A DNA stretch of 64,000 nt from Armatimonadota bacterium (GTDB lineage: Bacteria > Armatimonadota > SYMT01): the NCBI GenBank assembly GCA_041690135.1, contig JAWLHY010000002.1, positions 1,168,342 through 1,232,341 of the forward strand. Reading direction: 5' to 3'. The translations under genes were made by a program, and so were the position numbers. Position 1 is the stretch's first letter. Every line of letters begins with the position of its first letter. This document shows, in pieces, positions 28,094 to 35,387 of the stretch. The notes under the pieces are model-generated. The model was not told the origin of the DNA. It ran no database searches and was given only the letters and a program-made list of their open reading frames with translations.

Positions 28094-28729
28094 ATGCCGA
28101 TGCATCCACTCCTTCCCCTCATGGCCCGGTTTATTCTGGGATTCATGTGGATACTTGCCGCACTCGGCAAACTCGCCCGGCGTGGCAGTGGCGGAAACGA
28201 ACTCGTGCAGTCACTGGGGGTGCGGCCGGAGTGGCTGAGTTCCCTGGCGACAACGGTGCTTCCGTTGGTGGAGCTGGGTTTGGGGGTCGCGCTACTGCTT
28301 GGGATCGGAGGGGATTGGGCTGCTTACGGAAGCCTGGGATTGCTTCTGGTATTCACCACGGTCATCCTCGCGGTTCTTGTCCAGGGCCGGCGTGTCGTGT
28401 GCAACTGTTTCGGTTCGTTGGGGCGAGCGCCGCTTTCAGTTTGGTCCGTGGTTCGAAACGGAGCCTTCGTCCTGCTTACGTTGCTCGCGCTCCATCCGGG
28501 AGCGGACTTCCTTACCGTGGATGGCCTCCTTTCCGGCAGCACGAGGCCGCTGGGGGCGCCGCTCTCGGACTTGATTCCCATGCTGGCGTTGTTCTCGGTG
28601 GTCGGCATTCTGGCGGCGCTGGGGGCCGCTGCGTGGGAGGTGGGCTTGCTGGTGGCGCGAGCGAAGGAGGGTCCGGCACTGCTGGCTCCGGATCGCGACC
28701 GTTTCCGGCGGTGGTTCCGCGTGGTGTGA
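28094..28729 (+). CDS. mauE: MauE/DoxX family membrane protein
   Basis: AALGKL, LPLVELGLG, CNCFG, VVRN; AGGAG RBS. Confidence 0.88.
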   Translation: MPMHPLLPLMARFILGFMWILAALGKLARRGSGGNELVQSLGVRPEWLSSLATTVLPLVELGLGVALLLGIGGDWAAYGSLGLLLVFTTVILAVLVQGRRVVCNCFGSLGRAPLSVWSVVRNGAFVLLTLLALHPGADFLTVDGLLSGSTRPLGAPLSDLIPMLALFSVVGILAALGAAAWEVGLLVARAKEGPALLAPDRDRFRRWFRVV

Positions 28730-28781: not shown

Positions 28782-29447
28782 GTGCCACAAGGTCTCTGGC
28801 TCTATTCGTACCTGGGTCTCTGGGCTCTCTTGATCCTCACCAGTCTGCTGCTCTTTGCGGTGGTCCGGCAGTTACGCGCTCTGCACAGTTTTTGGGTGCA
28901 GAACGACCCGGAATGGGGGTTGCCGCTGGGGGCGCTGGCGCCCGCGGTAGCCGGAGGAGATGTCTTCGGCAATCCGGCCTCGTTGGCAGCTACCCGGGGT
29001 AAGAAGACGCTCATCCTGTTCCTCTCGCGCGGGTGCAAGGCGTGCCGTCAGGTGGTGTTGATGGTCCCCACGCTGGCCCGCTGGGAACAGATGGAGATCC
29101 TGCTGGTGGTGGGCGGCAGCGCCCTCGATGCCCGGCTCTACATGGCGGAACATCACAGGGAGGAGCGGTTTCCGACGGTGCCGGTGCTGTGCGATCGGGA
29201 CTATGGCCTGTTGGAGAAGTACAAGGTTTCCGCCGTGCCCTACGCAGTGGTGGTGGACGAGGATGGCCGCGTGGGGGCCAAGGGCTCCCCGCTGGCGAGT
29301 GCGGAGATCGCGATGCTGCTGCGCCAGGCGGATGAGCTCCGCCGCAAGCGCCAGGAAGCGGCGCCCCGGCCGGGCGTTGGCTTCATCCCCGCGGAGCGGC
29401 TCGTACCGCGCGACGTGGAGAGCGAAGTGGCGGTGTCCGCGCGTTGA
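28782..29447 (+). CDS. mauD: MauD-like membrane-anchored thioredoxin #1
   Basis: N-terminal TM then VRQL..LH; CKAC; VPYAVVVDEDGRVGAKG. Confidence 0.82.
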   Translation: MPQGLWLYSYLGLWALLILTSLLLFAVVRQLRALHSFWVQNDPEWGLPLGALAPAVAGGDVFGNPASLAATRGKKTLILFLSRGCKACRQVVLMVPTLARWEQMEILLVVGGSALDARLYMAEHHREERFPTVPVLCDRDYGLLEKYKVSAVPYAVVVDEDGRVGAKGSPLASAEIAMLLRQADELRRKRQEAAPRPGVGFIPAERLVPRDVESEVAVSAR

Positions 29448-29461
29448 AGCAGGGGGTCGTG

Positions 29462-30070
29462 ATGGAGCGATTTTGGATCGTGACGCATGTTCTGGGCTGG
29501 GGCCTGGGCCTGCTCCAACTGGCGGTGCTGATCGCCCTACTCTGGGCCGTCGGGCGCATTCATCTGAAAGACACGCGGGCCTTTCACGCGTTGATCACCG
29601 ATGAGGGCCCCGACATTCACGAGCCGCTTCCGCCGTTTGCGGGACGCGACGCCACCGGGCGTTCCGTGCGAAGCCTCGACTATGCGGGGAGATCGTTCGT
29701 GCTGCTCCTGGTCAGCCCGGAGTGCGCGCCCTGCGAGCAGTTGCTGGCCGCGGTAAACCCGGCCGTACAGGCCATCCCCGGCTTTCCCGAGCCGGTGGTG
29801 GTGATGGAAGGAGACAGCAGCAATGCCGAGCTCGTTGCGCGCCGCGACCGGTTGAACTGTCCGGTCATCGTCGATCCGGATGGGGCGATCCGCGAAGGGC
29901 TGGGAGTCCAGCGCACCCCGTACGCCTTCCTGGTGGACGAGGCCGGGGTCGTGCGGATGAAGGGCATCGTCAACAGTGGCGGGCAGTTGGAAGGACTGGT
30001 GCGTCGCCGCGGCCGCCACATCGGAAATCTGGAATGGCAGACTGTCGATACGGGTCTATCGACCGCTTGA
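29462..30070 (+). CDS. mauD: MauD-like membrane-anchored thioredoxin #2
   Basis: TM; EGPDI; SPECAPC; TPYAFLVDEAGVVRMKGIVNS..QLEGL. Confidence 0.85.
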   Translation: MERFWIVTHVLGWGLGLLQLAVLIALLWAVGRIHLKDTRAFHALITDEGPDIHEPLPPFAGRDATGRSVRSLDYAGRSFVLLLVSPECAPCEQLLAAVNPAVQAIPGFPEPVVVMEGDSSNAELVARRDRLNCPVIVDPDGAIREGLGVQRTPYAFLVDEAGVVRMKGIVNSGGQLEGLVRRRGRHIGNLEWQTVDTGLSTA

Positions 30071-30193
30071 GCCGGGCCGGCTCGGGCGCTTCACCGCCGA
30101 GACGCTCCGGTGGGACGGATCGCTGGGGTCCGTCGACCGAGGCTCTCATGACCGGGGCCGCCCCGGGTGGGCGACCCAGTAGGAGTTCCCTCC

Positions 30194-30625
30194 ATGGATG
30201 AATTGATCCGCAAATTCTCACTCTCCCTGGCCCGAAGTACGGGCCGGCGCGGCTTCCTGGCGGGTGTTGCCCGCGGCACCGTGGGCCTGGGCCTGCTCCT
30301 GGGCGGGGTGTTCGGTGCGCCGCCCCAGGCCTTTGCCGACTCGAACTGCAAGAACTACGACAAGACGGGTTACCCGGACAGCTGCGGCAACTCCTCCGCT
30401 AATTACTGCAACAGTGGGGATGCCAGCGGGTGCTACGACGGCGACAACAACGTGACCTACTGTTCGAACTGCCCCTCCAACGATGCGAGCGGCTGCCCGA
30501 GCGGGCACACCAAGGGAGGCCAGTGGTCCTGTTGCTGCAGCAATAAGATCAGTACCTGCCAGGACTGCTACGACAGCAGCAGCAATCTCTGTATCTGCAA
30601 GACGACCGACCGCGGCAAGTGCTAA
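30194..30625 (+). CDS. Tat-exported Cys-rich protein, MauA (amine dehydrogenase light chain)-like but shortened
   Basis: AGGAG RBS at 30181; GRRGFL Tat motif; AFA cleavage site after residue 48; 95-aa mature part with 15 Cys and one Trp; CPSG...W...DC...CIC pattern. Confidence 0.8.
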   Translation: MDELIRKFSLSLARSTGRRGFLAGVARGTVGLGLLLGGVFGAPPQAFADSNCKNYDKTGYPDSCGNSSANYCNSGDASGCYDGDNNVTYCSNCPSNDASGCPSGHTKGGQWSCCCSNKISTCQDCYDSSSNLCICKTTDRGKC

Positions 30626-30875
30626 AGTCGGCGCCTGAGTGAGAACCGTCCTTTCGTTCGCCGGCACGGAGCGGCGCGATCGGACAAGACCCGGGAATCC
30701 CACCGCGAGCCGGCCGGCTGCTCCGGAGCGACCTACCCGAATGGGGAGCGTTCCGGGGCGCCGGTGGGCGCGGAGGGGATCCGAGAACACCCAGTTGCCG
30801 GTGATGGGCTCAGCCTGGGAACGGTCAGTCCGGCAATCGGTTAAGAAGGTTTCTCAACGGATGTGAGGGGAAGGT

Positions 30876-31679
30876 ATGACGGGGGAACGGCTCCAGAAGG
30901 CACCACAGCAACTGGCGCTTGGCGTGGGCGGAATTCTGGTGGGCGCCGCGCTGGCGATGGCGGGAGACGCGGGCCGGATGCTTTCACCGACGGCCGTCCT
31001 GTTGCTCCTGGCGGTGATGACCGGCGTGGCGAAGAGCGGCTCGACGTGAGGGCTCTCCATGCTGGGCCAGTTCGGCCCCATTGCCCAGCGCTCGGCCGGC
31101 ACCGGGTTGCGCGCGGCGGTGATGTATACCGTCGGGATGGCCCTCGGTGGCGGGACCGTCGGGCTCTTACTCGGTACTTTGGGATTGGGTTTGCGGTGGC
31201 TCTTCGACCTGGGGTACCAGGCCGAGGCCCGGTGGGTGCTCCTGGCGGTATCCGTGCTGGGGTTTGTAGGCGGGCTGCGAGATCTGGAGTTCATCCGCTT
31301 CGCTCTCCCGCAGCCGGCCCGGCAGGTGCCCCGTCACTACCTGGCCGTGTTCGGACCGGTGTGGACGGCTCTCTTCTGGGGCCTCGGCATCGGCCTGGCC
31401 TACAGCACGATGATCCAGTTTTCCCTGTACTGGGTGCTGGCGGTTTGGGTCACCCTGGCGGGTAGCCCGGTACTGGGCCTCGTGGCCCTGGGGCTGTATG
31501 GCCTGGTCAACGGGCTGCTGCTGATCGTCGATATCGCGGCGGTGGCGCGGGGCCGCTGGGAAAGCGGCGGGGTGCTCGGCTGGGGCCGTACCGCTCTATT
31601 CTTCAACGTGGGAGGAGTCGTGCTGCTGGCGTGCGGAGTTTTCCTGGCACTGCGGGCAGCACTACCGGTAGTTTTGTGA
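30876..31679 (+). CDS. mauF: MauF-like membrane protein, probable selenoprotein (in-frame TGA at 31047-31049)
   Basis: ATG 30876 is in frame with ORF 31059; reads GVAKSGST*GLSML (MauF STWSPCG motif); PQPARQVP and WGLGIGLAYSTMIQ match MauF motifs; hairpin just after the TGA. Confidence 0.75.
31059..31089 (+). promoter_or_regulatory. Putative bacterial SECIS element
   Basis: AUG-(CU bulge)-GGGCC-AGUUC-GGCCC-CAU stem-loop with a GU-containing apical loop starting 19 nt after the UGA; alternative 7-bp stem GCUGGGC/GCCCAGC. Confidence 0.6.
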
Positions 31680-31728: not shown

Positions 31729-33465
31729 ATGAGATGGCAAACAGCGTTCCGTCATTGGCTCTTGGGGATGGGGATAAGCCTTGCGACGGTCGGAGGGGTG
31801 GCTGCTCAAGAGTTCCCGGCTCCTCCGGGTGACCAGAACCCGCGCGCGCTCCCGGTATCCCTTCGTGCCCACGGCATCCCGGCCGGCGAGGTGGTGCAAG
31901 AGTTGCAGGAGCAGATGCGGGTGCCGTTGAAGGCCGAGGCCGGGCTGGCCGCGGACCGGCTGGTGGTCTTTTGCCGGAACCGGCCCGCGGGACAGGTGAT
32001 GAGCAGCCTGGCAAAGTTGCTGAATGGGCGCTGGGAACTGCCCCCGGGGAGCGAGCTTCGCAACGCCACCCTCTCTGCTGTGCCCTCGGCGCAGCGCGAA
32101 GAGATCGAGTTGCTGCGCAAGGGGTTCAACGCGGCCTGCGCTCCCTGGCTGAACGTGGCTGCCCGAGCCCGCACGCAGGCGCTGGCCGAACTGAAGTCGC
32201 GCACCTCCGCGGGGCGGGGCGCGGCGGCGGAGATTGACCACCTGCTGCGACGAACCGGCAAAGTGCCGGATCCCGGTCTGCAGATGTTATCCAGCCTCAG
32301 CCAGGGGCAGCGCGAGCAGCTCTTGCTGAGCGGATTTCTCTACCTGCCCTTCGCCAGTATGGATGCGCGCCAGCAAGCGTTGATGCGTCTCTTCCTCCAG
32401 GAGAAGGGGATGAAAGAGGCGGAGGCGCTGGCCCACCTGCAGAATGCCGGCCCCCTCTTCTATGCCGAGACGGACCCCTCTACCCTGACGCAGGCCCACT
32501 TCGTGATGTGGTTCGACGGCAGCTTCCGCACGTTGACGGAACAGCCGCCCGTGACCCTTTACTCCCGCTCCGGGGGACCGGAGCGTTCGGTGCGTGCTTA
32601 TCCCTACCCCGTAGCCGGCGGAGCAAGGCTGGACTACACCGCGGTGGAACGGCACCCACTGCCGCGAGAATTCCGATTCGATCCGGAAGAGGAGTATACC
32701 TGGCCCACGATCCTGGAGGCCCTCTCCCGCACCACGCAGTTTGCCCTGGTTTCCGATTGCTTCCAGGCCTCGGAGGATGTGAAGCCGGTAGCCGGGCGCA
32801 CTCTGCCCCAGGCCAACTTGCCGGGGGGACGGACCCTGGCGGGGGTGCTGGACGCGCTCTGCCAGCAGTACCGCCGCGTCTGGTGGGTGGAAGACGGCGC
32901 GATCTTCCTGCGAGATCGGGAATGGTTCTTTCGCCGGCTGTACGAAGTGCCACCCGCGGTGGAGCAGTCGCTGGAACAGCACCTGAGCCAGCACGGAACA
33001 CTCCCGCCCGCCGGCCTGGCCCTGTTGGGACGCCTCACCAGCCGGCAGATCGAGGGCTGGAGCGTTGCCAGTGCCATGAAGGCCGGCAGCCCCATGGGAG
33101 CGCGCGGGAGCTTCTGGGGTCGGAAGGCGCAGCCTTACCTCGAGCTCTTTGCCAAATTGCCGCTGGTCAGCCAGGGGGAGGCGCACTCGGAAGGCGGTCT
33201 TCGCTTCGACCGGATGCCTCCCGCCGCGAAAACCGCGTTCATGCGGAACCTCCTCATCACCGAAGGCAACGAGGTGATGGAGAAGTTCCCGGAGGTCTAT
33301 TTGCGCATCCACCAGAGCGCTACCCCCGTTCCCGCGGGGAAACGGCAGTTGGGTCGCCTCACCCTGATGTTCACCTATGCACCGGAAGCGCGCTTCCTGG
33401 CCCGGTTCCAGATCCTTTTTCCACTTCCGGGAGGGACCCCGCAGGCCGGAGCCCCTCCCGGGTAG
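31729..33465 (+). CDS. Large secreted hypothetical protein with two STN/secretin-N-like segments
   Basis: Signal peptide (VAA|Q); VSLRAHGIPAGEVV..RLVVF..QVMSSLAKLL and TLAGVLDALCQQY..WWVEDGAIFLR. Confidence 0.65.
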   Translation: MRWQTAFRHWLLGMGISLATVGGVAAQEFPAPPGDQNPRALPVSLRAHGIPAGEVVQELQEQMRVPLKAEAGLAADRLVVFCRNRPAGQVMSSLAKLLNGRWELPPGSELRNATLSAVPSAQREEIELLRKGFNAACAPWLNVAARARTQALAELKSRTSAGRGAAAEIDHLLRRTGKVPDPGLQMLSSLSQGQREQLLLSGFLYLPFASMDARQQALMRLFLQEKGMKEAEALAHLQNAGPLFYAETDPSTLTQAHFVMWFDGSFRTLTEQPPVTLYSRSGGPERSVRAYPYPVAGGARLDYTAVERHPLPREFRFDPEEEYTWPTILEALSRTTQFALVSDCFQASEDVKPVAGRTLPQANLPGGRTLAGVLDALCQQYRRVWWVEDGAIFLRDREWFFRRLYEVPPAVEQSLEQHLSQHGTLPPAGLALLGRLTSRQIEGWSVASAMKAGSPMGARGSFWGRKAQPYLELFAKLPLVSQGEAHSEGGLRFDRMPPAAKTAFMRNLLITEGNEVMEKFPEVYLRIHQSATPVPAGKRQLGRLTLMFTYAPEARFLARFQILFPLPGGTPQAGAPPG

Positions 33466-33583
33466 GCATCGGCCGGTAGCGCCTGCGCAGGGGGTAATGC
33501 CGCTTTCCGGAGGCTGCAGTTGGCGCTTTCTCTCGCTGCGGTGAACGAATGGTTTGCGATCTCGTCGGCCTGGAACCCAACCC

Positions 33584-34150
33584 ATGGAAAGCACACCTGT
33601 CCTTTTTGCGCTTGTTACCGGGCTGCAACTGCTGCTCGGCGGCAGTTGGCTGATGACGGCAGCCCGGAGTCGCTCCCAGGCCGGGGGCAACCGTCCGGAG
33701 ACGGCGCTGGCTCCCTGGGGCTTCCGGGAGAAACTGCGCTGCGCCGCCGAAGCCGCCACGGGGGTGTTGCTGGTGTTCGGGTTCCTCCCCGCAACGGCGG
33801 CGGGGTTGGGGTTGATCCTGGCCGGGCCGCGGTTGCTGTCCGAGGTGCGGCGCATGCGGCAGCGAGACCCGCTTCGCCACGCTCCATCCGGCGGGGCGGC
33901 TCCGGACGGTTGGGGCGTGGCATGGGCGGGCCTCTTCCTGGGCGCTCATCTCGTACTGATAGGGACACACGCCTGGGGAAACGGAGGGGGCGCATGGCTC
34001 GGCAGGCCCCACTGCCCCACCTGGCCGGAGGCGGCGCTGGCGTTGGCGCTGGTTGCGGGCGCCACGCTCTGCCTTCGGGCGCTGGAGTTCCTGGTGCGGG
34101 CTCGCGCGATCGCCCGCGGGCGGGTGGCGGGGCAGTACATGGGAATTTGA
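33584..34150 (+). CDS. Degenerate MauE-like membrane protein (no CxCFG)
   Basis: TM pattern and AEAATGVLLVFG align loosely with ELGLGVALLLG of mauE; sits at the head of a second triplet. Confidence 0.5.
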   Translation: MESTPVLFALVTGLQLLLGGSWLMTAARSRSQAGGNRPETALAPWGFREKLRCAAEAATGVLLVFGFLPATAAGLGLILAGPRLLSEVRRMRQRDPLRHAPSGGAAPDGWGVAWAGLFLGAHLVLIGTHAWGNGGGAWLGRPHCPTWPEAALALALVAGATLCLRALEFLVRARAIARGRVAGQYMGI

Positions 34151-34168
34151 CCGGAAGGAGAAGGCCCG

Positions 34169-34693
34169 ATGGATGGAAACGCGGGACCGCTGCTGCTGTT
34201 GCTCTGGCCGGTCGTGCTGCTGGAGGGGCTGGTGCTGCTCGTGTTGGGTCGCATCCTCTTCGGGTTGGATGCCGCGCGCCGTTCGTTTCTCCCGGCAGCC
34301 GGACCGGACCTGGGCAGCCGGCAGCCGCAGCCCCCGGCGAGCGGGGGTAACGCTGCTGCGGAACTGCGCGCCGTGTTGCTGCTCCCACGCGGCTACGGGC
34401 CCGGCGATGCTCCCGTCCGCTGGCTGGAGACCATCGGCGGGCGCTGGGGAGTGGCGCGGCTTGTTGTGCTCGCCGCGAAAGTGGCGGGCAACGGGGGGTA
34501 CCCCGGTGTAATCGGAGATCCGCAGCAGCGCTGGGCGCGGGCGTGGCATGCACCCTCCGTACCGTATGTGGTGCTTCTCGACCAGGAAGGTCGAGTCTGC
34601 GCCAAGGGGGTGGTCACTACCCCCTGGGATCTCGATCACGCCTGCCGAATGGCCGCGATGCGGTTGGATATGGCCCTCGGACGGGTGGAATAG
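34169..34693 (+). CDS. MauD-like protein lacking CxxC
   Basis: GGAG RBS; TM; GPDLG; SVPYVVLLDQEGRVCAKGVV; CxxC position reads PRGYGPG. Confidence 0.7.
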   Translation: MDGNAGPLLLLLWPVVLLEGLVLLVLGRILFGLDAARRSFLPAAGPDLGSRQPQPPASGGNAAAELRAVLLLPRGYGPGDAPVRWLETIGGRWGVARLVVLAAKVAGNGGYPGVIGDPQQRWARAWHAPSVPYVVLLDQEGRVCAKGVVTTPWDLDHACRMAAMRLDMALGRVE

Positions 34694-34724
34694 GGCGGCC
34701 CATGCCGCCGGGGAGACAGGCGCA

Positions 34725-35387
34725 GTGTTTATTATCACCTACACCGTGGCATGGCTGGCTAGCGTAGCGGTGGCCGCTTTGATCCTGGCGTTCCTGTGGG
34801 CGCTCGGACGCCTTCAGCAGCAAGGTGCTCCGGCCGTAGAGGACCCGGCCGGTTCCGGAGTCCAACTCGGCGCTTCCATGGTCGATCTCGGCATTCCGTG
34901 CCTTGCGGAACTGGCATGCCCCGCGGGTGGCCCCCCCGACTCCCGCACCGTGCTGCTGTTGCTCTTCCCCGGAACCCCGGAAGCGGCCGATCCGATTCTG
35001 CGCTGGACGTTGCCGCGCCTCCGGGAGAACGCCCTGCCGCTCCGGCTGCGGGTTTTCTTTTGCGAGGATGGCGAACTCACCCCGGAACTGCGCCGCGTGC
35101 TACGGGAGGGGGAGTGGTCCGCCGGTCATCCAGAACTGTCAGCGCTCACACCGCAGGGGCAGCCGGTAGTATTCGTGTTGGACCCGCAGGGCCTCTTATG
35201 CGCGCGGGGGATCCTTCGCTCCATTCGCACCCTGGATGCCCTTCTCTCCTTCCCCTCGGTGCCCTGGACCGCCAATCCAGTTCCCTCCCACTCTCCTTTG
35301 AGCTCGGTACCCCGCCCATCAGCCGGGCGTCAAGTCGAGCGGTCGCCGGCTCCCGCCCGACCGGTGAGGTCCTCCCATGCTGTTTGA
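34725..35387 (+). CDS. Second MauD-like protein lacking CxxC
   Basis: GTG start after GGAGA; TM ending WALGRL (cf. WAVGRI in mauD#2); QPVVFVLDPQGLLCARGIL. Confidence 0.6.
   Translation: MFIITYTVAWLASVAVAALILAFLWALGRLQQQGAPAVEDPAGSGVQLGASMVDLGIPCLAELACPAGGPPDSRTVLLLLFPGTPEAADPILRWTLPRLRENALPLRLRVFFCEDGELTPELRRVLREGEWSAGHPELSALTPQGQPVVFVLDPQGLLCARGILRSIRTLDALLSFPSVPWTANPVPSHSPLSSVPRPSAGRQVERSPAPARPVRSSHAV

Follow-up and report, generated by a model that had tools for sequence, protein, structure and literature searches.

The region at 30876-31679 of the window, i.e., the 64,000-nucleotide stretch of DNA analysed here, very probably corresponds to one gene encoding a genuine and unannotated selenoprotein, namely, a selenocysteine (Sec) variant of the known MauF family that is found in a mau-like maturation cassette. 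This verdict is based on homology, on the column occupied by either Cys or Sec, on conservation of the TGA codon, on the presence of the Sec machinery and on covarying RNA structure in relatives. The features of the gene, all on the + strand, are as follows:

30865-30874, + strand: Shine-Dalgarno-like purine-rich stretch, read in the sequence just 5' of ATG 30876
30876-31679, + strand: coding sequence of the MauF-family selenoprotein, 267 residues plus the terminal TGA; gene callers give 31059-31679 only
31047-31049, + strand: in-frame TGA read as Sec (residue 58), aligned with the conserved cysteine of MauF
31059-31081, + strand: SECIS-like hairpin of 3 bp, a CU bulge and 5 bp, with the loop AGUUC (31069-31073)

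Examination of the sequence revealed a hydrophobic frame that opens with ATG 30876, extends for 57 codons and ends in ...SGST, immediately before TGA 31047-31049. Past this TGA, the same frame continues via GLSM into the ORF beginning at ATG 31059 and closes at a terminal TGA (31677-31679). As such, the 267-residue frame running from ATG 30876 across the TGA that was proposed in the initial annotation is indeed found in the sequence. The truncation by standard gene callers likewise proposed there is reflected in the public protein sets, which contain a 206-residue form (P0003) only and no 267-residue product. The assignment of ATG 30876 as start is backed by P0018, a protein of 57 residues that begins with the same first Met, presents 74% identity over all 57 residues and stops at the same residue as does the 57-codon segment of the window. 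P0004, in turn, comprises 206 residues, is 84% identical and begins at the same Met as does the truncated window product; in a word-indexed protein search, P0004 and the window's own P0003 were the only matches. P0004 and P0018 are encoded on different contigs, with both sharing the places at which the window sequence stops and restarts.

No match to the read-through product was found in Pfam or NCBIfam. An exhaustive phmmer search returned 406 proteins at E <= 0.001, of which the best 150 are listed, and the 21 hits reaching the N-terminal region (188-313 residues) served for a full-length alignment. A profile generated from the window protein and its homologues (A2) matches the annotated mauF of Paracoccus denitrificans PD1222 plasmid 1 (E 1.2e-31), while comparison with P. 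denitrificans MauF using hhalign yielded a probability of 99.1 (E 1.1e-18, 178 columns), in support of the MauF homology claimed earlier. As direct BLASTP between the two proteins gave an E value of 0.003 over 96 residues, the window protein is a distant member of the MauF family. The STWSPCG motif, cited in the initial annotation, is present in the P. denitrificans mauF product, and hhalign places the Cys of this motif opposite residue 58. Hence, the TGA aligns with the cysteine of MauF WSPCG, in agreement with the earlier proposal that Sec stands in place of the conserved Cys.

Across the 21 full-length homologues, the residue 58 column contains Cys in 20 cases and Trp in one (P0101). The neighboring Gly59 is almost invariant in this set, where the motif reads WSPCGLSM or xxCGxSH. 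Cys/Sec is conserved at residue 58 only; indeed, some Sec forms (e.g., L043) contain no Cys whatsoever after Met62. The Trp of P0101, a full-length protein of 252 residues, is a single base away from TGA, and this protein could either be a Sec form that has decayed or stem from an incorrectly translated record. Single-protein searches of the genomes of 60 relatives, of genome contigs and, with A1, of metagenome contigs returned nothing, and tblastn searches of plasmids with P0112 and with the MauE protein of the window gave no match.

The distribution of the TGA was considered in related sequences. Of the 136 rows of alignment A6, 91 are database homologues that start with Met at precisely residue 62 and open with a conserved M-[VI]-G-x-I-x-P-x-V. 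Judging from these sequences, the Met62 start seen in 91 of 136 rows is a signature of systematic truncation, the 'Sec-type' label of the 91 proteins being assigned on the basis of their start position. All database entries of the family that were seen are about 200 residues long and are either unnamed or termed 'hypothetical protein'. Related loci were sought with the nine-row alignment A4, rather than the 79-row A3, and with a pattern that starts at the Met. The 34 loci fetched comprise nine species genomes and 25 metagenome contigs, include five that duplicate others, and represent one subfamily (MVGTI) only. In all 34, an in-frame TGA is found at the same codon, exactly four codons before the Met, in the motif (L)WSP-TGA-G-x-S/A/N-M and with an open hydrophobic frame upstream. 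TGA and ATG are separated by 9 nt, in frame, in each of the 34 loci and in the window, with no indel across phyla. Because these loci were chosen by a Met-start pattern, some upstream break is partly built into the sample; what is not built in is that every break is a TGA, located without exception at this codon, in frame and after WSP.

The nine genome loci are labelled Blastocatellia, Terriglobia, Acidobacteriaceae, Acidiferrales, Anaerolinea, Chloroflexota, Isosphaeraceae, Planctomycetota and Actinomycetota, with the MAG labels of the TGA loci pointing to the phyla Acidobacteriota, Chloroflexota, Planctomycetota and Actinomycetota. In one carrier (G401), an independent HMM match runs across the TGA. 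Among 401 genomes of the phylum of G401, only G401 itself matched profile A2 at E <= 1e-8, although here, as in the sample of the window's own phylum considered below, only six first-look candidates per genome were scored, such that genes can be missed. In a quick FastTree tree of 111 rows (25 of the 136 having been left out because of a different start, a residue other than Cys or a short tail), Sec-type rows, mostly labelled as such on the basis of truncation, and Cys-type rows are interleaved, corresponding to at least five switches, or three when only starred branches are counted (shuffled mean 17.7). Two near-identical metagenome contigs (L063 and L064) contain WSP-TGA-G, with the frame breaking about 25 codons downstream and the remainder lying in another frame; this frameshift reflects either a pseudogene or an assembly error.

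In bacteria, the SECIS element is a hairpin directly 3' of the UGA, and its loop presents a conserved G or GU. RNA structure in the related subfamily was addressed in an alignment of 26 distinct 48-nt sequences, each beginning at the TGA. This revealed two adjacent conserved hairpins, one in which columns 12-17 pair with columns 22-27 and a second in which columns 29-35 pair with columns 41-47. Pairing was seen in 95.3% of cells, as compared to 36-63% when the partners were slid, and in five pairs, changes had occurred on both sides (23 cells). The observed covariation score was reached by none of 500 shuffles. In hairpin 1, the Met codon AUG is paired with a downstream CAU. Position 62 is Met in the fetched TGA forms and mostly His in the Cys forms, and the AUG-CAU pairing may explain why Met is fixed in the former. 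The loop of hairpin 2 contains GU in every sequence.

In the window, the stem-loop described in the initial annotation is present, with bulge and loop as given there. When numbering starts from the U of UGA, nucleotides 13-15 pair with 33-35, CU (16-17) is bulged, 18-22 pair with 28-32, and AGUUC at 23-27 forms the loop. The hairpin itself starts 10 nt after the TGA, its loop opens 19 nt past the UGA, and the minimum-energy fold of 66 nt includes exactly the 31059-31081 hairpin. By contrast, its energy is no better than that of shuffled sequences (z = +0.98; 170 of 200 shuffles fold equally well or better). As this energy is within chance in G+C-rich DNA, the window hairpin alone is not evidence, and what lies beyond chance stems instead from the comparative evidence on the TGA. 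Similarly, folding energies did not distinguish between the TGA forms, the P. denitrificans Cys form and the window, while a search of 30950-31200 against Rfam revealed no SECIS element and no other family. The window hairpin contains GU within its loop, and its start register is that of covarying hairpin 1 in the related subfamily. The two differ in sequence and length yet share the same starting nucleotide and the AUG-CAU pairing, with the base of the window stem being formed by the Met codon AUG (13-15) and the downstream CAU (33-35).

The genome from which the window was taken (G000; 9.1 Mb, 25 contigs) contains selA, selB, selD and tRNA-Sec, all scoring above curated cut-offs. Of these, selB is found on contig C8, while selA, selD and tRNA-Sec are found together at C1:1149453-1152359 (loci L009, L012 and L014). 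The selD gene includes one in-frame TGA of its own (motif CGG-U-ASK), and about 29 nt downstream of this TGA, a hairpin of 8 bp with the loop GUG is found. As for the TGA-carrier genomes, selB scored above the cut-off in seven of nine. In one (G408), tRNA-Sec, selA and a selB-like gene are adjacent, and in another, the MAG G407, a tRNA-Sec match was obtained and neither selB nor selA was found.

Other explanations for the interrupted frame were weighed against this evidence. Were TGA 31047 a true stop, the region would encode a 57-residue, one-helix peptide and a 206-residue protein, the latter generated by coupled re-initiation at ATG 31059 with GAGG serving as ribosome-binding site. The sequence UGAGG is indeed invariant in all 26 distinct sequences, with AUG 7 nt further on at a spacing ideal for a Shine-Dalgarno element; the layout in the window is the same, and ATG 31059 is the start that gene callers choose. 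Because UGAGG, 7 nt and AUG together resemble a stop, a ribosome-binding site and a restart, the invariant GG followed by a varying third base offers no proof that Gly59 is translated, and the use of all four Gly codons at this position does not discriminate between one gene and two. Nonetheless, we consider two separate genes to be very improbable. The in-frame 9-nt spacing is exact in the 34 loci and the window, the AUG is hidden by pairing within a conserved hairpin that covaries, and the codon preceding this AUG specifies S, A or N, like in the Cys forms. The resulting product would, moreover, lose the one residue that is almost invariant in the Cys forms. Finally, P0081 starts two residues earlier and contains Thr instead of Met at residue 62, and the carrier genomes possess Sec genes.

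Even less probable is that the TGA is read through without selenium, whether by near-cognate insertion of Trp or Cys or by leaky termination. While the Trp of P0101, one base from TGA, fits such a scenario, Trp would be no functional substitute for the conserved Cys. TGA is used as an ordinary stop in the genome at large, including at the end of this same gene, a complete Sec machinery is present, and the conserved hairpins directly 3' of the TGA correspond to the layout of a bacterial SECIS element. The lowest probability is assigned to a nonsense change in a Cys codon, be it in a pseudogene or due to a sequencing or assembly error, even if TGA is one base from both TGC and TGT and two loci (L063 and L064) are frameshifted further downstream. 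A 202-nt contig from run X2 is identical over 30916-31117, TGA included, whereas a roughly 95%-alike contig from run X1, with 10 differences over 31004-31195, comes from a diverged strain that also keeps the TGA. In the X1 contig, four of the five listed differences upstream of the TGA affect third codon positions of the read-through frame, no listed difference falls within 31044-31081 (a range that covers the TGA and the hairpin) and eight are in the flanks. Being of low depth, these two contigs offer weak support, yet they exclude a private assembly error. Run X3 contributed only short pieces that end short of the TGA and X4 contributed none, such that neither counts as evidence; nor is any meaning attached to stretches of the gene that lack contig cover in these runs. 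The break is, furthermore, found as TGA at the same codon in all 34 loci and is shared by P0004 and P0018. The three checks named in the initial annotation as able to overturn its proposal, concerning sel genes, an assembly error and homologues with Cys or TGA at this position, all left that proposal standing. As X1 and X2 are RNA libraries kept as contigs, transcription of the gene is also hinted at.

A single gene encoding Sec-containing MauF, as preferred here, is found downstream of other mau-like genes, all on the + strand:

28094-28729, + strand: MauE-family membrane protein (Pfam PF07291, E 1.4e-22)
28782-29447, + strand: MauD-like membrane-anchored thioredoxin-fold protein with CxxC (TIGR02661, E 1.5e-14, below cut-off; Redoxin/AhpC-TSA)
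29444-30070, + strand: second MauD-like thioredoxin-fold protein with CxxC (TIGR02661, E 9.4e-16, below cut-off; AhpC-TSA, E 5e-9)
30167-30625, + strand: Cys-rich MauA-like protein with a twin-arginine signal, a distant relative of MauA, the methylamine dehydrogenase (MADH) small subunit

Alone, the MauA-like protein has no Pfam match. When combined with four syntenic homologues and compared to P. denitrificans MauA using hhalign, a probability of 98.8 (E 5.8e-17) was obtained. This protein is probably the client of the cassette, and its translation may in fact begin at a Met located ten residues after the start of the ORF as listed. It is shorter than its relatives. Its mature portion contains one Trp, and the C-terminal region that in P. 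denitrificans MauA holds the second cofactor tryptophan is missing. Given the absence of this region, a TTQ cofactor seems unlikely in the MauA-like protein. The order MauE, MauD, MauA-like protein and MauF(TGA) recurs in four related loci (L042, L044, L045 and L046). In these four acidobacterial loci, a beta-propeller gene follows MauF(TGA), with the copy in L042 matching the MADH heavy chain (PF06433, E 4.2e-13). In the window, the ORF directly after MauF(Sec), encoding 578 residues (31729-33465), gave no Pfam or NCBIfam match.

The hydrophobic sequence and the nine helices of an AlphaFold2 model describe a polytopic membrane protein, with the read-through product predicted to fold as one unit (pLDDT 91, pTM 0.87). 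In this model, residue 58 lies at the break between helices 38-54 and 57-72. A Foldseek search of the PDB revealed no solved structure that matches the model at E <= 0.001, so that the fold offers no functional lead. Likewise, the window protein did not match PF02683 or PF13386 (DsbD/CcdA) at E <= 0.01. Still, two of 23 family members match Pfam DsbD_2 (best E 2.8e-8), weakly suggesting a link between the family and membrane thiol-disulfide transporters. As only one Cys/Sec is conserved, the MauF family contains no CxxC pair.

According to the mau literature of the 1990s, the amine dehydrogenase or its small subunit cannot be produced unless mauF is present. To our knowledge, MauF has since then been known only as a membrane protein needed for methylamine dehydrogenase, with its chemistry and function unknown. 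Sec almost always marks a catalytic redox residue. As such, the recurrent exchange of Cys and Sec at a single position provides strong comparative evidence for redox chemistry involving residue 58, which is likely to be the active site of MauF. In the mechanism that we propose, codon 58 (TGA 31047-31049) would be read as Sec by SelA, SelB, SelD and tRNA-Sec, with the hairpin at 31059-31081 helping in this process. Sec would replace the only conserved cysteine of the family (that of WSP-C-G) at the break between two membrane helices, where residue 58 could become linked to MauD, MauE or the client through short-lived selenenylsulfide bonds. Together with the MauE and MauD-like proteins encoded upstream, MauF(Sec) would take part in thiol/disulfide (selenenylsulfide) chemistry, the outcome of which would be maturation of the exported, Cys-rich and disulfide-rich MauA-like protein. 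For this putative function, i.e., a redox-active Sec/Cys58 acting with MauE- and MauD-like proteins in maturation of the MauA-like protein, we put the chances at about even.

Comparison with known systems supports the assignment while revealing differences. Like MauF of P. denitrificans PD1222 plasmid 1 (NC_008688, 216737-217570), to which it is homologous, the window protein is polytopic, with WSP-C-G-x-S in the former corresponding to ST-U-G-L-S in the latter, and like P. denitrificans mauF, its gene is encoded beside mauE, mauD and a mauA relative. At the same time, the window protein contains Sec rather than Cys and pairwise identity is low. Unlike in the P. denitrificans mau cluster, no mauB, mauG or amicyanin was observed beside the window gene, and mauF is the last rather than the first in the order. 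The client in the window also differs from P. denitrificans MauA in lacking the second TTQ tryptophan region. As in known prokaryotic selenoproteins with Cys homologues, the UGA occupies the position of a conserved Cys, a hairpin follows immediately 3' and selABCD would be needed. By contrast, the window MauF contains a single Sec with no UxxC/CxxU partner. DsbD and CcdA contain two conserved membrane cysteines, one per half. The window protein resembles these proteins (PF02683, PF13386) in presenting a Pro-Cys type motif at a helix break and in being encoded alongside membrane-anchored TlpA/ResA-like thioredoxins, yet differs from them in that one Cys/Sec rather than two is conserved in the MauF family and in that it has no Pfam match.

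Efforts at identifying literature that links MauF with selenocysteine, or a selenoprotein with methylamine utilization or mau partners, yielded nothing relevant. Table 1 of a 2026 review (PMC13188914) presents 119 families and subfamilies of prokaryotic selenoproteins, with the Sec form of YeeE/YedE and the SaoP permease being membrane examples. MauF does not appear in that table, although additional candidate families could be found in the supplements. The text of the review does not contain the terms Mau, methylamine, DoxX or transmembrane, nor does that of the deep-Sep paper (PMC12013277).

A broader reading can be offered, the chances of which we put at about even. According to this reading, Sec-MauF would constitute a selenoprotein family that is widespread among soil bacteria and absent from the inventory as tabulated in PMC13188914, and among relatives of the window protein, the Sec form would outnumber the Cys form. 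The family would possess its own conserved SECIS element, with the Met codon found four residues after Sec forming the base of the stem. As Sec is almost always a catalytic redox residue, its presence would identify the active site of MauF. Finally, MauE and MauD would work with a membrane relay based on a single selenol in the folding of disulfide-rich exported proteins well beyond methylamine dehydrogenase. Recognition of Sec-MauF brings in another family of membrane selenoproteins, one systematically cut short by annotation pipelines, while the well-supported SECIS alignment can be used to find and correctly annotate such genes in soil metagenomes. Likewise, the exchange of Cys and Sec renders the question of MauF chemistry testable. 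The presence of the cassette in several phyla, together with the beta-propeller genes, hints at undescribed quinoprotein-like or disulfide-rich exported proteins.

Two further observations concern sequences beyond the gene itself. At 33554-35387, after the 578-residue ORF, a second and degenerate set is found, consisting of a hydrophobic 198-residue ORF and two weak MauD-like ORFs (TIGR02661, E 0.0011 and 0.0049) that seemingly lack CxxC at the usual place. As these two ORFs overlap by about 146 nt as listed, their starts are uncertain. In the window's phylum, profile A2 matched 19 of 401 genomes at E <= 1e-5, with no internal stop being found in the matches outside the window's own genome. 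Most of these matches sit in open frames of about 600-820 residues. Those at L026-L041, matching the MauF profile weakly (E 1e-6 to 1e-9) in frames of this length, may represent fused forms of a MauF/DsbD-like membrane domain, with such long-frame matches being seen in 13 of 18 genomes of one family (f15).
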